A stretch of DNA of 40,368 bases from Candidatus Woesearchaeota archaeon (GCA_016188175.1 JACPII010000099.1:1-40368); one strand, 5' to 3'. Numbered from the stretch's first letter, positions 1,052 to 40,223 are shown. Translations and numbers: made by a program. The notes: generated from the letters alone by a model not told the origin.

Positions 1052-1198
1052 GTCGATACGTATTTGATTAGCATCTTCGAAACGCCCGATGTAAGATTGG
1101 CAAGTCCTGCGTCCCCGTAAGGGACGACCCCCCGCGACGGACTCAATGTAGGCTTAAAAGCGTTTCGACCTGAGGATGCTAAACAAATACGTCGATAC
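1052..1198. mobile_element. MITE-like element, family A copy 1 (core 1060-1190, 131 bp, plus 8-bp target-site duplications)
   Basis: Terminal inverted repeats are GTATTTGATTAGCATC (1060-1075) and GATGCTAAACAAATAC (1175-1190), 15/16 complementary. They are flanked by a perfect 8-bp direct repeat GTCGATAC (1052-1059 and 1191-1198). No ORF. The element lies 6 nt past the tRNA 3' end. Confidence 0.8.
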
Positions 1199-2495: not shown

Positions 2496-2639
2496 GGTAT
2501 GTGCATAGCACCCTAAGGTCAAAATTCAATTTAATGACTATTATCGACGAGCGTTGCGAGGGGAAGTCCCTTACGGGGACGCAGCTCCTTCCTGAAGCCC
2601 ATCGAGAATTTTGAAGGTGCTATGCACATACATTTTGAG
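2489..2639. mobile_element. MITE-like element, family A copy 3, inverted relative to copies 1 and 2 (core 2497-2631, 135 bp, plus TSDs)
   Basis: TIRs are GTATGTGCATAGCACC (2497-2512) and GGTGCTATGCACATAC (2616-2631), 16/16 complementary. A perfect 8-bp direct repeat ATTTTGAG lies at 2489-2496 and 2632-2639. The left TSD contains the truD stop codon. Confidence 0.85.
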
Positions 2640-5270: not shown

Positions 5271-5452
5271 TTTTGCCGGGTTGCATTGGAAAGTTGAAGG
5301 TTGCCATCCTTTTTGCGAAGCTCAATGACAATGATTTTGAGTTGACAGGTGGATGACCCCATCGGGGATGTCAGCTTTTTTGTAACAAATTAAAGCTGAG
5401 CTTGATGGCAACCCGAGCGTTAGCGAGGACTTTTCGATGCAACCTTTTGCTG
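5271..5452. mobile_element. MITE-like element, family B (core 5279-5444, 166 bp, plus imperfect TSDs)
   Basis: TIRs are GGTTGCATTGGAAAGT (5279-5294) and ACTTTTCGATGCAACC (5429-5444), 14/16 as DNA and 16/16 allowing G-U pairs. A second perfect 10-bp inverted repeat is GGTTGCCATC/GATGGCAACC. Flanking 8-mers are TTTTGCCG and TTTTGCTG (7/8). Confidence 0.6.
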
Positions 5453-13192: not shown

Positions 13193-13465
13193 ATGAACAT
13201 AACGCCCATCGGTGAAAGGGTCTTGATCAAGCCCATGAAGGAAGAGGAAAGGACTAAAGGCGGCATTTACATTCCCGAATCAGCCAAAGAGGAGAAGAAA
13301 GAAGGTGAAGTCATCGCTGTCGGGACTACTAAAGAAGGAAAGGAGCTGCCCTTGAAGAAAGGAGATAAGATATTGTATGGCGGCTACAGCTCTGACGATT
13401 TCAAGGTCGATGGCGAGAAATATATCATTCTTGAATTTAAAGATGTACTTGCAAAATTAGGGTGA
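13193..13465 (+). CDS. groES: co-chaperonin GroES
   Basis: MNITPIGERVLIKP..GGIYIPESAKE..GEVIAVG is the classic Cpn10 pattern. ATG 13193 is preferred over TTG 13166. Confidence 0.9.
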   Translation: MNITPIGERVLIKPMKEEERTKGGIYIPESAKEEKKEGEVIAVGTTKEGKELPLKKGDKILYGGYSSDDFKVDGEKYIILEFKDVLAKLG

Positions 13466-15085
<1,620 letters not shown>

Positions 15086-19415: not shown

Positions 19416-20423
19416 TCACTCAAATTCCCCCAGCGCAGCCTTCCCATACCCCTTCGCTTTTTCAAGCAGTGCGTCCTGGGCTGCTTTGATGTTGGCATCG
19501 CTGCCATTCCATGCCTTTAACGCTGCCCTCTGAAGCGCCCTCCCATAAGAAAAAGTTAATTTCCAGGGGAGCTGGCCCTTGAATTTTTTGTTCATCTCGT
19601 TGAGGTTGCTTGTTGCCGATTCATCGCTCTGGCCGCCGGAGAGGAACGCGATCCCGGGAACTTTCGGGGAGACCAACTCCTTAAAGCATGTGACGGTCAA
19701 ATCTGCAACCTTTTCCGGGGTTGCCTGGTCCGGGCAGGAAGATCCGGAGACAACCATGTTTGGCTTTAAGACCATCCCTTTCAGGTCAACTTTTAATCCT
19801 TTGAGCTCTTTGAACACCGACGCAAGCGTTTGTGCGGTGGCTTCGAGGCATTTTTCGATTGCATGGCTCCCGTCCATCAGCACCTCGGGCTCAACAATCG
19901 GGGTGATATCTGCTTCCTGGCACAATGCAGCATAGCGCGCCAATGCATGGGCGTTTGCCTTGATGCAGGCTTTTGTGGGAATAGCATCTCCGATGGCTAT
20001 CACGGCGCGCCATTTTGCGAACTTTGCGCCCAATGACCGGTACTCCTGCAATCTCTCCCGCAGGCCGTCCAATCCTTCCGTTATCGTTTCGTTGGAGAAC
20101 AGGGCAAGCGGCTTAGCGCCCTTGTCCACCTTTATGCCGGGAAGAATCCCCTGCTGCTCGAGGAGCCTTGGGAATGGAATTCCATCGGCCGTCTTTTGCC
20201 TGATGGTCTCATCAAAAAGGATTGCACCAGAAATGTAATCCCCCAACCCCGGAGCGGTTATGAGGAGCTGCCTGTATTTCCTCCTGTTCTCCTCAGTATT
20301 TTCAACACCGATTTCCTTAAAGCGCTTTTCAATCGTGCCGGTGCTTTCATCCATCGCAAGTATCCCTTTTCCGCCGGCGACCATCGCGAGCGCAGTCTTC
20401 CTGACCTCTTTTGTCATGTGCAT
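19416..20423 (-). CDS. fba: fructose-bisphosphate aldolase, class I
   Basis: GKGILAMDESTGTIEKRF N-terminal signature and full-length class I aldolase pattern (335 aa). Confidence 0.9.
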   Translation of the reverse strand: MHMTKEVRKTALAMVAGGKGILAMDESTGTIEKRFKEIGVENTEENRRKYRQLLITAPGLGDYISGAILFDETIRQKTADGIPFPRLLEQQGILPGIKVDKGAKPLALFSNETITEGLDGLRERLQEYRSLGAKFAKWRAVIAIGDAIPTKACIKANAHALARYAALCQEADITPIVEPEVLMDGSHAIEKCLEATAQTLASVFKELKGLKVDLKGMVLKPNMVVSGSSCPDQATPEKVADLTVTCFKELVSPKVPGIAFLSGGQSDESATSNLNEMNKKFKGQLPWKLTFSYGRALQRAALKAWNGSDANIKAAQDALLEKAKGYGKAALGEFE

Positions 20424-22066: not shown

Positions 22067-22267
22067 TAGGAAAGGACATCACTTTAGTTTGAATAAAGAT
22101 ATTCCATCAGTTTTTAACTTATGGTGTAATCCTGCCGGAAATGTAGCGGGAATATCTTTATTCTCAGAAATCCGACCGAGCGACCGGAGGGAGCGAGCAA
22201 TCCCCCCATCTATGACGGGGGTGTCGGATTTCTGTTGAAAACATACGAAAATTAATGTCCTTTCCTA
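22067..22267 (+). ncRNA. ~200-nt multi-helix structured element of unknown class (three-way junction); strand uncertain
   Basis: Closing helix TAGGAAAGGACAT (22067-22079) / ATGTCCTTTCCTA (22255-22267). Perfect 15-bp hairpin GAATAAAGATATTCC (22091-22105) / GGAATATCTTTATTC (22149-22163). 12-bp hairpin CAGAAATCCGAC (22165-22176) / GTCGGATTTCTG (22223-22234). No ORF and no flanking direct repeat. Confidence 0.5.
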
Positions 22268-22299: not shown

Positions 22300-23400
22300 C
22301 TATCTTTTTTTCCACCTTCCACAGCTTACTAATAAATATGGGGGCACATCTAGATGGGATTCATTCAGCCATCCGATATATCTTTTAAGGACGTTGTGAA
22401 CAGTTTTGAGATGACATCCCAACAGATCTGCAGCTCGTGTTCTATTCCCATCACTTTCACGTAATGCCTGATCTATCAGGAGAAACTGAATTTTATTGTA
22501 ACCGACTGTCGTACAATATTCCATAAGGTTCCGAATAGCTTTTCGCCCATTTGATAAATCCCCTTCGGGAGTCCCTGCAAGAACAGGATCCGGAAGAGCA
22601 TCCGCCCTTATCGTGAAGTCTTCCCCCATCAGGATTACTGCTCGCCCAACAATGTTTTTTAGCTCCCTGACATTTCCGGGGAAGGAATAGGATTGAAGAA
22701 TTTCGAGGAATCGTTTATCTACCGTGACGGGTTTCCCATCGATATCAACCCTCGGGGATTCTTCGTAAATACCCGAAACCTTGGCGACTCCCAGGGTGGG
22801 GCGGTACTCATTGAGGAATAGCTTGACGAAATGATATACTAATGGCCTAATATCCCCGGGCCTCTCTCTCAGGGGCGGTATACTTATCCCAAATTCGTTC
22901 AAGCGATAGAAAAGGGCGTCAATGAGGGTTCCATCCTCTTTCCCACCTGGTAGATTCTTACACGTTGCAGCCACAATCCTAACATTAAATGTGGAGGATG
23001 CTGCGCTTCCCACCCTGTAAAATTCCCTCTGCTCCAGAGCCCTCAATATTTTTCGCTGGGATTCAACGTCCATGTCTCCAATTTCATCGAGAAAAATTGT
23101 GCCGTCGCCAGCCCCCTCAAATAGCCCCGCCCTATCCCTCAAGGCACCGGTATAGGCACCATGGACACTGCCAAACAATTCAGACTCTACAAGGGTGGGT
23201 TGTATGGCGGTGCAATTGACGGCAACAAACGGGCTATCTCTACGGCCGCTAAATCGGTGGATAGCTCTTGCAACAAGCTCTTTTCCTGTCCCCGTTTCAC
23301 CGGCGATAAGGACGTTCGCATCAGTTGGAGCAACCTTGCGGATATATTCAATAACATCGCCCCCCATCGTCCCAACAATCCCATCAATTGTTTCTGGCAT
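22300..23400 (-). CDS. sigma54-interaction-domain AAA+ activator (bacterial enhancer-binding-protein type) with C-terminal Fis-type HTH and no N-terminal sensor domain
   Basis: Walker A GETGTGKE, ESELFG, GAFTGA-type loop (GAYTGA), Walker B GTIFLDEIG, R-finger region QRKILRALEQREFYRVG, sensor II VRELKN, and HTH NRTRAADLLGCHLKTVHNVLKRY. Confidence 0.85.
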   Translation of the reverse strand: MPETIDGIVGTMGGDVIEYIRKVAPTDANVLIAGETGTGKELVARAIHRFSGRRDSPFVAVNCTAIQPTLVESELFGSVHGAYTGALRDRAGLFEGAGDGTIFLDEIGDMDVESQRKILRALEQREFYRVGSAASSTFNVRIVAATCKNLPGGKEDGTLIDALFYRLNEFGISIPPLRERPGDIRPLVYHFVKLFLNEYRPTLGVAKVSGIYEESPRVDIDGKPVTVDKRFLEILQSYSFPGNVRELKNIVGRAVILMGEDFTIRADALPDPVLAGTPEGDLSNGRKAIRNLMEYCTTVGYNKIQFLLIDQALRESDGNRTRAADLLGCHLKTVHNVLKRYIGWLNESHLDVPPYLLVSCGRWKKR

Positions 23401-29926: not shown

Positions 29927-30127
29927 AGCCCGTTAAAATCTCAAGTTTTCCACCAGTATGTTTCACTGGCGGTTTACCACAAGAATAATATCTTGTGGAG
30001 AATGACAACAAGAACATTGTTCTTGAGCCTATGCCGATGGCATAGAGAACAAAAAATCCGACCCGAGCGACCGGAGCGAGCATGCCGCCCCTCTATGGGG
30101 GGGCGGTCGGCGAACTTTTGACGGGCT
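29927..30127 (+). ncRNA. ~200-nt multi-hairpin structured element sharing a ~57-63-nt module with 22067-22267; strand uncertain
   Basis: Closing helix AGCCCGTTAAAA (29927-29938) / TTTTGACGGGCT (30116-30127). Serial hairpins are CCACAAGA-TAATA-TCTTGTGG, CAAGAAC-AT-GTTCTTG and CTATGCC-GA-TGGCATAG. The module AAATCCGAC-CCGAGCGACCGGAGCGAGC-..CCCC-TCTAT-GGGG..GTCGG spans 30054-30110. Confidence 0.45.
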
Positions 30128-30360: not shown

Positions 30361-31416
30361 ATGCCCAGCTCAAAACCAATCGCTCAAGTTATCCGAAAGC
30401 TTACCGTTAAAGGTAAAAACGTCCTTGCCGCCGATGAAAGCAAAAAAACAGTTACCGAGAGGTTTGAAAGGAAAGGCATTCCTCCGACAGATGAAAACAT
30501 CAGGCTGTACCGGGAATGGATTGTAACTACTCCTGGACTTGAGAGGTACGTCAGCGGAATAATCCTTTTTAAGGAAACGTTGGAACAGGCCGGCAGCCAC
30601 GGGAAACCATTCGTTGAAACTCTCCATGAAAAGGGCATTGTCATCGGAGTAAAATCTGATGAAGGGCTTTACAAGCCCGCGGGATGGGGTGAAAATATCA
30701 CCCAGATGGAGAGCCCCAGGAAATTGTTGGAAACCCTCAAGAGATACAGGGAAACGCACGGTGTCCAGTTCACCAAATGCAGGTCATTGTTTTCCATCGG
30801 CCCAAACACCCCCTCAAACCGTGCGATTGACATCAATGGGGCGATGATGGCGCTCGACGCTCTTGTTTCCCTGGAAGCTGGGCTTTTTCCTATTGTTGAG
30901 CCGGAGGTTGAGCGTGCCGGAACCCACACCATAGACCAGTGCTCATCTTATGCCATTGCAGTATACTCGCGGCTGAATGAGAAGCTCAGGCAGTATGGTG
31001 CAGCAATTTCCGATGTTGGAATCAAAACAAATTTTACCGTCCAGGGTGCAGATTGTGGCGGTACAATACCTCCCCGTGAAGTTGCCAAAATGACGTTTCA
31101 GGCTCTTGCAAAAGGATTTGGGTTCTACGGCGTTGAATCAATCTCCATTTTCTTCATGCTGTCCGGAGGCTTGGATGACCTGCCCTCGGGCCAATATCTC
31201 CATGAATTGAACCGGTTTGTTGAAAAAGGCCCCTTTGCAAAAGAAAAAACTTTCATGGCTTCTTATTCCAGAGCAATGCTGGACAAGGCTTTGGATGTTT
31301 GGGCAGGAAACCCAAGGAATGTTGAAAAGGCCCAAAAGAAGCTGTTGGAGCGCGCCAAGGCATTCAGCGAAGCAAGGCAGGGGAGATTGGATGTTAAGGA
31401 TTATAATTGGGCTTAA
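30361..31416 (+). CDS. class I fructose-bisphosphate aldolase-like protein (divergent second copy)
   Basis: GKNVLAADESKKTVTERF signature and collinear similarity to the aldolase at 19416-20423. Start set at ATG 30361. Confidence 0.75.
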   Translation: MPSSKPIAQVIRKLTVKGKNVLAADESKKTVTERFERKGIPPTDENIRLYREWIVTTPGLERYVSGIILFKETLEQAGSHGKPFVETLHEKGIVIGVKSDEGLYKPAGWGENITQMESPRKLLETLKRYRETHGVQFTKCRSLFSIGPNTPSNRAIDINGAMMALDALVSLEAGLFPIVEPEVERAGTHTIDQCSSYAIAVYSRLNEKLRQYGAAISDVGIKTNFTVQGADCGGTIPPREVAKMTFQALAKGFGFYGVESISIFFMLSGGLDDLPSGQYLHELNRFVEKGPFAKEKTFMASYSRAMLDKALDVWAGNPRNVEKAQKKLLERAKAFSEARQGRLDVKDYNWA

Positions 31417-35958: not shown

Positions 35959-36005
35959 AACGTTGAATTGCCGCTCCTTCCGGTTAATATACTTATGGGT
36001 GCAGG

Positions 36006-36025
36006 TCACTCGCCACTTGCCATCC
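36006..36025 (+). repeat. truncated (first 20 nt) copy of the 40-nt cassette repeat
   Basis: TCACTCGCCACTTGCCATCC is identical to 36072-36091. Identity stops exactly after ..CATCC. Confidence 0.9.
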
Positions 36026-36071
36026 TTGATGTTCGCTGCCTGCCCAACAACGAAAAGGAGAATTGAAAAGT

Positions 36072-36111
36072 TCACTCGCCACTTGCCATCCGCAGCCGGC
36101 GGGTATTTAAA
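36072..36111 (+). repeat. 40-nt cassette repeat copy 1 (ends in TATA-like TATTTAAA)
   Basis: TCACTCGCCACTTGCCATCCGCAGCCGGCGGGTATTTAAA. The next ATG is at 36147. Confidence 0.95.
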
Positions 36112-36146
36112 TCACCCGTCCGGCCCTGAGTACCTGGTCGATTTTC

Positions 36147-36684: not shown

Positions 36685-36724
36685 CCACTTGCCACTTGCC
36701 ATCCGCAGCCGGCGGGTATTTAAA
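36685..36724 (+). repeat. 40-nt cassette repeat copy 2
   Basis: CCACTTGCCACTTGCCATCCGCAGCCGGCGGGTATTTAAA. It starts 26 nt after the preceding stop, and the next ATG is at 36772. Confidence 0.95.
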
Positions 36725-36771
36725 CTCCCGGGCCTATTTTTCATTAGGCAGTTTTACAAAAGGTTTCAGCC

Positions 36772-37195: not shown

Positions 37196-37235
37196 CCACT
37201 TGCCACTTGCCATCCGCAGCCGGCGGGTATTTAAA
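37196..37235 (+). repeat. 40-nt cassette repeat copy 3
   Basis: Identical to copy 2. It starts 4 nt after the preceding stop codon, and the next plausible ATG is at 37258. Confidence 0.95.
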
Positions 37236-37257
37236 CCAGAAACCCGGAAGCATAGGT

Positions 37258-37847: not shown

Positions 37848-38474
37848 ATGGTGCTGGATGCCTCGGGTGGCGGGGGTAATTATTCTGGGCCGTCAAATCA
37901 GGCTGACGATAGGATTGATTTCTTGAATAAACAAGCGCTTCGCCACGTTGAAGGTATCCGGGGGGTTATGCCTGTTCCTTCCGTAGAAGAGCTTGAACAG
38001 ATGGTTGAAACAAGAAGGACCAGCCAAAATCCTTTTCCCGAAAAAGTTGTCGTTGTTGAAGCAAAGGCTGAGGCGCTTAGAGATTACCTGGCAGGGCCTG
38101 GTTCAAGGAGGAATATGGTTATTGTTCCCACCTTAAGGATTTACCAGCTTGCGAGAGTGCGTGGTGACGATATACCTCCCATCGAAAGAGGCGAATTTCA
38201 TTTAAAGGGGTATGATCCCCACAACGGGCATGTTGTCAATGGGCACTTTGCAAGGGTTGAGTTCTTATTCGTCCAGCCTGAAAACCACTTTGTCCCTTTT
38301 CATTCATCCCTTGTTCCCCTTAGGCCAACAAAAAATGATTTAGGATATGACCCCTTTGCCACCATTCAGCTGAGTGATGACATTTTAACGTCGGGAAGGT
38401 TTTTACGTTTCCGGCCCGACAGCTATGAGCCTCAACTTCTGGAAATGCTTTTTGGGCATCCGGTTAAGAATTGA
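37848..38474 (+). CDS. hypothetical protein
   Basis: 208-aa ORF with its own TATA-like TTTATATAAA about 25 nt upstream. No motif recognised. Confidence 0.5.
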   Translation: MVLDASGGGGNYSGPSNQADDRIDFLNKQALRHVEGIRGVMPVPSVEELEQMVETRRTSQNPFPEKVVVVEAKAEALRDYLAGPGSRRNMVIVPTLRIYQLARVRGDDIPPIERGEFHLKGYDPHNGHVVNGHFARVEFLFVQPENHFVPFHSSLVPLRPTKNDLGYDPFATIQLSDDILTSGRFLRFRPDSYEPQLLEMLFGHPVKN

Positions 38475-38736
38475 CTATCCTGTATTTGGTTAGCACCTTC
38501 GAAATCCTAGACGATACACCGCAGGCGCTGCGTCCCCGGATGGGTGAGCGTAGTGTTCCGGTGCCTCCGAAGCGGTAGAGAGCGAGACACAAAAAACATA
38601 CGTTTTTTAGTGCCTTCGGCACGGAGGAGAATCTAGCGTTCCTGCCTTGCAGGAGGAGGGCGACCCCCCGCAACGCGCCAGCCGTCGGTAGTTGAAAGTA
38701 TTTCGACTTTGGGGTGCTAAACAAATACGCTATCCT
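38474..38736. mobile_element. MITE-like element, family A copy 2, enlarged (core 38482-38728, 247 bp, plus TSDs)
   Basis: TIRs are GTATTTGGTTAGCACC (38482-38497) and GGTGCTAAACAAATAC (38713-38728), 15/16. Flanking 8-mers are ACTATCCT and GCTATCCT (7/8). The left TSD starts with the last base of the upstream stop codon. Confidence 0.8.
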
Positions 38737-40095: not shown

Positions 40096-40135
40096 CCACT
40101 CGCCACTTGCCATCCGCAGCCGGCGGGTATTTAAA
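40096..40135 (+). repeat. 40-nt cassette repeat copy 4
   Basis: CCACTCGCCACTTGCCATCCGCAGCCGGCGGGTATTTAAA, preceded by the palindrome GGCAATA-TT-TATTGCC. The next ATG is at 40224. Confidence 0.95.
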
Positions 40136-40223
40136 TGCAGGTTCTTATATTCTCTATGGTGAAGGCCAAGTGCATTGCAGCATCGAAAACCTTAAATAAG
40201 TAAAGGTACTTAGTCTACCTAAA

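Follow-up and report, generated by a model that had tools for sequence, protein, structure and literature searches.

A family of miniature inverted-repeat transposable elements in DPANN archaea shares a covarying core with a predicted triple-helical apex

We analysed a stretch of 40,368 nucleotides from a Candidatus Woesearchaeota archaeon (GCA_016188175.1, JACPII010000099.1:1-40368; hereafter "the window"), which carries dispersed copies of a short structured repeat that we interpret as a family of miniature transposable elements with inverted repeats (MITEs). TruD homologues place the organism within Woesearchaeota. A preliminary description of this DNA had reported three copies with 16-bp inverted ends and 8-bp flanking duplications, and all three were recovered at 1060-1190 (+ strand), 2497-2631 (- strand) and 38482-38728 (+ strand). 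The first of these (copy 1, 131 nt) is enclosed by identical duplications GTCGATAC at 1052-1059 and 1191-1198, and a tRNA gene has its 3' end 6 nt from the right duplication, as first described. Its left end (1060-1075, GTATTTGATTAGCATC) and right end (1175-1190, GATGCTAAACAAATAC; reverse complement GTATTTGTTTAGCATC) pair at 15 of 16 positions, with an A·A mismatch at position 8, and further inward lie a second helix (1077-1085 with 1160-1168) and a bulge, CCTGAG (1169-1174). Copy 3 (2497-2631, 135 nt) has GTATGTGCATAGCACC at both arms and lies between identical duplications ATTTTGAG at 2489-2496 and 2632-2639, the former containing the TGA stop codon of TruD (2493-2495). Copy 2 (38482-38728) is a long variant of 247 nt, whose ends GTATTTGGTTAGCACC and, as reverse complement, GTATTTGTTTAGCACC pair at 15 of 16 positions; its duplications, ACTATCCT at 38474-38481 (overlapping the final base of the upstream gene's stop codon) and GCTATCCT at 38729-38736, match at 7 of 8. 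Inverted ends and duplications are therefore present in all three copies, and the complete 16/16 pairing that had been described holds for copy 3 only.

Copies 1 and 3 share a 33-nt core, as identified by a repeat finder, and are identical over the 19-mer CTGCGTCCCCGTAAGGGAC singled out previously. Both are predicted to fold far more stably than shuffled sequences (-51.5 kcal/mol, z = -6.8, and -59.2 kcal/mol, z = -7.5, respectively), and the longer copy 2 also departs from its shuffles (z = -3.9). Copy 2 owes its length to an extra domain of ~116 nt between an apical hairpin (from 38533) and a C-rich strand (38664-38669), a type of insertion that recurs at loci L018, L066, L067 and L068 in other genomes. 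A covariance model built from a 64-copy alignment, under which true copies score 110-139 bits and their reverse strands 30-55 bits, gave 124 bits for copy 1 and 129 bits for copy 3. With a fourth, related element discussed below, the window holds four elements in 40 kb, i.e., one per 10 kb.

To determine how widely the repeat occurs, one genome per species (596 Gb of reference genomes) was scanned with the 23-mer pattern GTATNTGNNTAGCANCTTCNAAA. The scan returned at least 102 loci against ~17 calculated chance matches, with several loci per genome in many DPANN metagenome-assembled genomes (MAGs), and six to eight in several MAGs among the matches listed. Nearly all listed hosts are Woesearchaeota or Nanoarchaeota MAGs, some being labelled "uncultured Methanosarcinales". 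Matches in three bacterial genomes (L021, L029, L050) look like chance, and a true element end at L058 lies on a contig of 1.8 kb that was binned with a Gammaproteobacteria MAG. The family is thus restricted to DPANN archaea (Woesearchaeota/Nanoarchaeota). From the listed loci and the window we recovered 86 complete elements, mostly 128-138 nt long and with perfect 16-bp ends in most cases, and the covariance model picked up additional, diverged copies. Elements are intergenic, occur in every type of gene context and occupy A/T-rich targets.

Most copies in the whole set carry flanking direct repeats: of the 84 elements with both flanks available, 46 have identical 8-bp duplications and 13 further ones differ at a single base. 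A ninth base matches in just 9 of the 46 perfect cases, which is chance level, and shifted registers almost never match, giving a duplication length of exactly 8 bp. Different species hardly ever share an insertion site, and a search for orthologous copies in which selection could be tested in place yielded essentially none. A relative whose TruD is 86% identical (L106) has converging TruD and adenylate kinase genes separated by a 33-nt spacer with no element, i.e., an empty site at a position that is occupied in the window, and flank divergence there is too great to show a single 8-mer exactly; the only other contig with an identical TruD ends inside the repeats on both sides. Further copies, flanking repeats, the empty site and unshared sites all favour the non-autonomous transposon family originally proposed. 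They also bear on the idea that the repeat is a host multi-copy non-coding RNA gene with the inverted ends as its closing stem and no transposon involved. A strongly conserved, covarying structure and a very wide spread within one archaeal group would suit such a gene. It is at odds with variable 8-bp duplications at most copies, positions that differ between species, the empty site in a close relative, the occurrence of both orientations in all intergenic context types, and truncated, mismatched and nested copies that reflect decay; this explanation is largely refuted already, and we regard it as highly improbable.

The repeat shows the inverted ends, a duplication whose length is fixed while its sequence varies, the small size without coding capacity, the dispersed copies and the presence/absence polymorphism that characterise MITEs, and it is almost certainly a genuine family of this kind. 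The one attribute for which we found no match, in a search that was not exhaustive, is a cognate autonomous element sharing the ends. Each copy was inserted by an enzyme cutting with an 8-bp stagger, with duplication of an A/T-rich intergenic target, and the enzyme would be a DDE-type transposase acting in trans.

The interior of the element has a conserved fold. In an alignment of 64 distinct copies (A2), RNAalifold and mutual information delineated four helices and an apical hairpin: P1, formed by the ends (columns 1-16 with 126-141), P2 (18-26 with 110-118), P3 (47-50 with 85-88), P4 (51-54 with 76-82, the commoner class having an AC bulge) and the hairpin (56-59 with 63-66). Standard pairs fill 95.9% of alignment cells (98.7% in P1) vs. 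31-45% when the 3' partner is slid by 1-3 columns, double-sided changes occur in 18 of 37 pairs, and none of 500 shuffles reached the observed pairing or covariation. The covariation of the second helix (P2) between the window copies was confirmed. The TTC and GAC described as constant and unpaired around it mostly are not, as UC:GA pairing lengthens this helix; the conserved unpaired bases are U17 and, on the 3' side, the six of the bulge CCUUAK, together a 1x6 loop following P1. With the helices constrained, the two variable segments pair mutually in 54 of 64 copies, making the whole element a rod-like imperfect palindrome with a few conserved asymmetric features. The predicted rod would run from P1 through the 1x6 bulge (U / CCUUAK), P2, a variable paired segment, P3 and P4 to the apical hairpin. 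In copy 1, alignment and covariation place the core at 1104-1142 (+), with P3 GTCC/GGAC, P4 TGCG/CGCG with the AC bulge, the hairpin TCCC-CGTAA-GGGA (1112-1124) and a C-rich strand at 1129-1132; the core of copy 3 is at 2549-2587. Compensatory change is extensive throughout the interior and therefore argues for selection on the fold, which we consider likely.

In long variants (160-260 nt), the additional sequence lies either at or beside the apex or immediately internal to the left end, and it forms small covarying hairpins of its own. In several elements (L014 547-715 and 1985-2153, L040 6723-6896, L060 356-528, L102 4177-4347), a conserved module of ~40 nt (..CCTGTTGC..CATTAGGAGACCGCAGTCGACTTTAC..) lies inside the C-rich strand and could represent a mini-element nested there or a domain that was added. 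Known RNA motifs did not account for the fold: Rfam gave no match at the gathering threshold in the window and nothing meaningful at E<=10 on four elements, and the tandem G·A positions required for a K-turn or C/D-box at the P1/P2 loop are not conserved, as judged by eye. At the boundaries of an archaeal bulge-helix-bulge intron, a 4-bp helix lies between two 3-nt bulges. Here, the boundaries are a continuous 16-bp helix with the first irregularity in the 1x6 loop after P1, and the flanks are direct repeats and not complementary, so this candidate was rejected.

The ends themselves exist in two states. Positions 5, 8 and 9 read T,T,T or G,C,A (31 vs. 32 sequences), always on both arms together and with only a few single-transition intermediates; both classes are found within one genome, and three elements with near-identical interiors (L075, L090, L102) differ in end class. 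The coordinated switch on both arms fits co-evolution of the ends with a transposase, and the two classes fit two transposase specificities combined with recombination between elements. The transposase probably recognises the outer half of the end (positions 1-9), with specificities TTTGTT and TGTGCA, and the inner half (TAGCAYC) is part of the conserved structured core. Selection on the fold and end/transposase co-evolution had been offered as alternatives; each is partly borne out, the former by compensatory changes in the interior and the latter by the two-state ends.

Pfam scans of 44 open reading frames (ORFs) in the window detected no transposase, in agreement with the preliminary description, nor any Y1/HUH, tyrosine or IntI enzyme or gene cassette. 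The autonomous element with the same ends that had been anticipated was also sought, not exhaustively, in ~700 kb of DPANN DNA flanking the loci, in viral contigs and among DPANN insertion sequences (ISs) of IS6 type, without being found there or in the window. When inverted repeats spaced 150-5000 bp apart and flanked by 8-bp duplications were sought systematically in the loci, only MITEs emerged. Several candidates were rejected. A 1.5-kb "element" at L074 (6264-7834) is merely a PolD small-subunit gene with a MITE's left end on one side and a right end, in duplicate, on the other; these ends are either remnants of two elements or a rearrangement. Viral contigs gave two chance matches, both within coding DNA, and the contig with the P0165 copies also has an IS66-type gene, whose ends could not be delimited.

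In L040, a MITE lies 17 nt from an IS6-type (PF13610) transposase, which was reached through a weak tblastn match and belongs to a protein family with 587 matches in DPANN metagenomes. Copy comparison showed that it is carried by an IS of ~1.0 kb with ends GAT(A/T)AAGTC-N7-CGTCATCT and a 9-bp duplication, encoding a zinc-ribbon ORF followed by an IS6-type DDE domain (loci L129-L134, L117-L128, L181-L186 and L040 5710-6713) and present in six identical copies on one 78-kb contig. This abundant IS was previously uncharacterised. It was rejected as the partner as its ends and 9-bp duplication do not match those of the MITE, and no MITE ends were seen flanking it. In one lineage (L117-L122), its 3' end overlaps a convergent reverse-transcriptase gene (RVT_1).

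The core of the family is also found in MITEs with different ends. The fourth window element (5279-5443, - strand, 165 nt), assigned to a sister family (ii), matches the covariance model at 5293-5414 with 26.9 bits. Its outer ends, GGTTGCATCGAAAAGT and GGTTGCATTGGAAAGT, pair at 14 of 16 positions and are followed by a 13-nt spacer CTCGCTAACGCTC, an inner helix GGTTGCCATC / GATGGCAACC and the core GCTGACATCCCCGATGGGGTCATCCACCTGTCA, and its duplications CAGCAAAA (5444-5451) and CGGCAAAA (5271-5278) agree at 7 of 8 positions. Scanning metagenomes for the left junction of family ii gave 46 loci, ~25 of them true elements with the same architecture, and at L096 and L017 the core lies within yet other ends. 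Family ii ends (GGCTCTGTCCTGAAT, GGCTTTGTTGAAAAT, GGCACCGTTCAAAAT and others, of GG..CTGT..AAA type) carry a GG tip and cTGTt and aaa motifs, the signature of IS6-family ends (PMC7986276), and its duplications are mostly 9 bp. The main family in turn has the 8-bp duplication and inverted ends in the 15-20 bp range (16 bp) typical of IS6/IS26, a group in which MITEs are rare (PMC7986276). In contrast to IS6/IS26, however, its end begins with GTAT and not GG, and TGTT occupies positions 6-9 in class 1 only; the 9-bp duplications of family ii and the different ends of the DPANN IS6-type IS likewise depart from that pattern. Membership in IS6/IS26 is therefore not established.

Since the same core occurs with other ends and another duplication length, it is a module kept by several transposon lineages and not a by-product of the sites of one transposase, and a fold that outlasts such changes points to a function independent of any one enzyme. 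This persistence bears on the possibility that the fold of the MITE is functionless, with DNA-level palindrome correction (template switching as DNA is replicated, or gene conversion acting between arms and between copies) producing covariation as a mechanical by-product. Such a process would suit an element that is an imperfect palindrome over its whole length, pairs that are almost purely Watson-Crick with G·U not above A·C, the lack of orientation bias relative to genes, and the apparent reshuffling of end classes and cores between copies, which implies active recombination. Correction should nevertheless erase asymmetry, yet the CCUUAK bulge, the AC bulge and a 9-nt segment comprising a linker and the C-rich strand are conserved across families, and the core is kept across MITEs that differ in ends and duplication lengths. 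The C-rich strand poses a further difficulty, in that it mirrors, and does not complement, one arm of the apical hairpin, a relationship that template switching cannot yield. We consequently judge a functionless fold to be improbable.

This mirror relationship involves three strands that change together: the 5' pyrimidine strand of the apical hairpin, its purine strand, and the C-rich strand 4-5 nt downstream. In the first layer, C-G is accompanied by a third C in 71 sequences and T-A by a third T in 9; in the next, C-G-C occurs in 56 and T-A-T in 19, with 7 further sequences combining C-G with a third T. T-A-T cases number 28 in register, compared to 0 at shifts of ±1, -2 and -3, 9 at +2 and 1 at +3, and treating the purine and third strands as parallel "pairs" gives 22 double-change cells vs. 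0-11 in slid controls. Across families the third strand is the mirror of the 5' strand, with a full parallel match in 18 of 22 informative distinct cores and an antiparallel match in 2 of 22. The configurations are GGGAG/CCCTC, GGAG/CCTC, GGGA/CCCT and GGGGA/CCCCT, as well as GGAA/CCTT in L152 by eye; within the window, copy 3 (GGGA with CCCT) conforms to the rule, and in copy 1 the final triple is C·A-T, a mismatch. An alternative antiparallel hairpin was rejected as the cause of this covariation, as it needs class-dependent registers and matches 2 rather than 18 of the 22 cores.

Pyrimidine-motif triplexes are parallel and built from U·A-U and C+·G-C triples (PMC7583470), and covariation of this form makes a parallel pyrimidine-purine-pyrimidine triple helix the somewhat favoured prediction for the apex. 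The C-rich strand would contact the purine strand of the hairpin in parallel, forming four to five C·G-C or U·A-U triples. As the third strand leads directly into the 3' strand of P4, coaxial stacking of P4 and the triplex is possible. An antiparallel triplex of the purine motif (G·G-C, A·A-T), formed by the complementary strand, is compatible with the same covariation and would implicate DNA. In this scenario, the fold acts as single-stranded DNA recognised by the transposition machinery or an accessory protein, like IS200/IS605 ends or integron attC sites, and the triplex may be of that pH-independent kind. By our own derivation the mirror covariation is equally consistent with it. The strict preference for Watson-Crick pairs, without any excess of G·U, suits DNA, pyrimidine-motif triplexes rich in C form poorly at neutral pH (PMC7583470), and the apex accepts insertions of 30-120 nt, like the variable terminal structure of attC. 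Inverted ends with a fixed 8- or 9-bp duplication are, in contrast, the signature of double-strand DDE transposition. IS200/IS605 single-strand transposons and attC recombination are not known to produce such a target duplication. The core moreover persists with different ends, so that it is not bound to one enzyme, and two conserved wobble positions, a T·G pair in P4 (26 sequences vs. 30 with T-A) and the hairpin base (50 sequences), favour the strand as aligned. A single-stranded DNA role thus appears unlikely, if somewhat less so than a functionless fold.

Taken together, the most plausible explanation is a DPANN MITE family mobilised by a transposase in trans, with a fold under selection, a probable triplex at its apex and a core that acts as a module, and we assign this combination a probability of roughly 70%. 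Our best guess is that the core works as a folded single strand, through which the element becomes tolerated or successful. It would most likely be a compact, nuclease-resistant RNA produced by read-through from neighbouring genes, like REP/ERIC-type or triple-helix stability elements, or alternatively a folded DNA strand during transposition; on the sequence evidence, we hold RNA and DNA to be evenly balanced. Several observations weigh against this overall explanation. Elements show no orientation bias with respect to neighbouring genes (20 in the same and 14 in the opposite orientation, in tandem contexts), and with G·U in 56 cells and A·C in 58, the usual signature of RNA is missing apart from the two wobble positions; both types of mismatch may have arisen by neutral decay once an element had inserted. 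At neutral pH, a run of three to four C+·G-C triples should be unstable (PMC7583470). The three-way changes fall within ~20 nt, such that recombination could spread them, and perhaps only four or five events are independent. Finally, no autonomous element with the family ends turned up in the flanking DPANN DNA or viral contigs, and the ends of the DPANN IS6-type IS (GATAAAGTC...CGTCATCT) and its 9-bp duplication differ from those of the MITE.

Among known systems, hairpin MITEs such as Bacillus cereus bcr1, the Neisseria Correia element, ERIC and RUP (PMC3184786) are closest, being 100-250 bp long, ORF-free, intergenic and multi-copy, with inverted ends, a fixed-length duplication and a predicted stable stem-loop if transcribed. 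Unlike these, the DPANN core is associated with at least three unrelated kinds of ends and two duplication lengths (8 and 9 bp) and shows three-strand mirror covariation, and the family resides in DPANN hosts, in which the search described above gave no partner IS. REP/REPIN sequences with their RAYT transposases, IS200/IS605 ends and attC resemble it as imperfect palindromes with conserved extrahelical bases, covarying arms and a variable apex, but none combines terminal inverted repeats with a fixed target duplication. These groups are marked by subterminal hairpins or R'/R'' core sites and by a Y1/HUH or IntI enzyme that goes with them, and membership was rejected on the basis of the inverted ends, the 8-bp duplications and the lack of any such enzyme in the window. 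RNA major-groove triplexes, including the ENE stability elements of MALAT1, PAN and transposon RNAs, telomerase RNA, and the SAM-II and preQ1-II riboswitches (PMC7583470, PMC12501189), similarly place a pyrimidine strand parallel to the purine strand of a hairpin and tolerate the isosteric swap of C·G-C for U·A-U, and triple helices in transposon transcripts have precedent (PMC12501189). The DPANN core differs from these in being predicted from sequence alone, in being C-rich with three to four consecutive C·G-C triples, in its internal position with no 3' A-tail clamp, and in lacking a pseudoknot, with the hairpin followed by a 4-5 nt linker and a third strand running straight into P4. A bulk census had counted ~105 MITEs per Mb in a Woesearchaeal genome, with the MITEs not characterised (PMC11602168). 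New here are a conserved, covarying core common to MITEs that differ in their ends and duplication lengths, mirror covariation of three strands, and the restriction to DPANN archaea.

The window and related loci hold additional features of interest. ARAGORN and Rfam call no tRNA in the window, and the tRNA gene beside copy 1 (1205-1375, - strand) was recognised by eye as interrupted by two insertions: the D-loop holds one, and the anticodon stem holds the other, of ~66 nt, in its 3' strand. Versions spliced by brute force gave many ARAGORN tRNA calls, with tRNA-Arg(CCU) the commonest among the 15 listed. The longer insertion includes a weak C-box-like match, GCUGAUGAGG (Rfam sR47, E = 6). A degenerate second tRNA 3' end with a shortened T-loop (GCGCCGGGGAGGATTCCCCC, 980-1000) lies ~205 nt from the real one, across copy 1, and might have been left by an old integration or duplication event at this gene. 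Elsewhere, at L045 (404-426), an exact 23-nt left MITE end, GTATGTGCATAGCACCTTCAAAA, is found inside a tRNA gene between the anticodon-stem strands, with no right end, and looks like a truncated insertion tolerated in a tRNA intron.

Two further repeats were observed in the window. One of 41 nt, CCACTTGCCACTTGCCATCCGCAGCCGGCGGGTATTTAAAC, is present in four to five copies (36003-36112, 36685-36725, 37196-37236 and 40096-40136) among small ORFs that include a PBECR2-like nuclease and a DUF2283 protein; it ends in a TATA-like TTTAAA and may be promoter-bearing. The other, of 58 nt and in two copies (22181-22238 and 30064-30121), has an internal hairpin that covaries (CCCCCCATCTATGACGGGGGTG vs. 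GCCGCCCCTCTATGGGGGGGCGG) and may represent a second structured repeat family. Bacterial-type genes also occur in this archaeal window, namely a GroES/GroEL pair (13193-15085), an AAA+ regulator with a sigma-54-interaction domain (22300-23400) and two class I fructose-bisphosphate aldolase paralogues (19416-20423 and 30361-31416).

The elements described here break metagenome assemblies and are usable as strain markers, and combined with their transposase they could be developed into a genetic tool for organisms without one. The triplex, if real, would be an unusual natural C·G-C-rich example found through covariation alone and, at ~45 nt, small enough for direct biophysics. A more far-reaching proposal, which we advance tentatively, is that the core is a new structured module, a natural C-rich parallel triple helix on a rod, kept by several unrelated DPANN transposase lineages for its function. 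If this is true, the core may block exonucleases, insulate read-through transcripts, or take part in transposition as a folded cofactor or recognition element. DPANN genomes are ~1 Mb in size, yet the window has one element per 10 kb, a load that so reduced a genome would have to tolerate or use.

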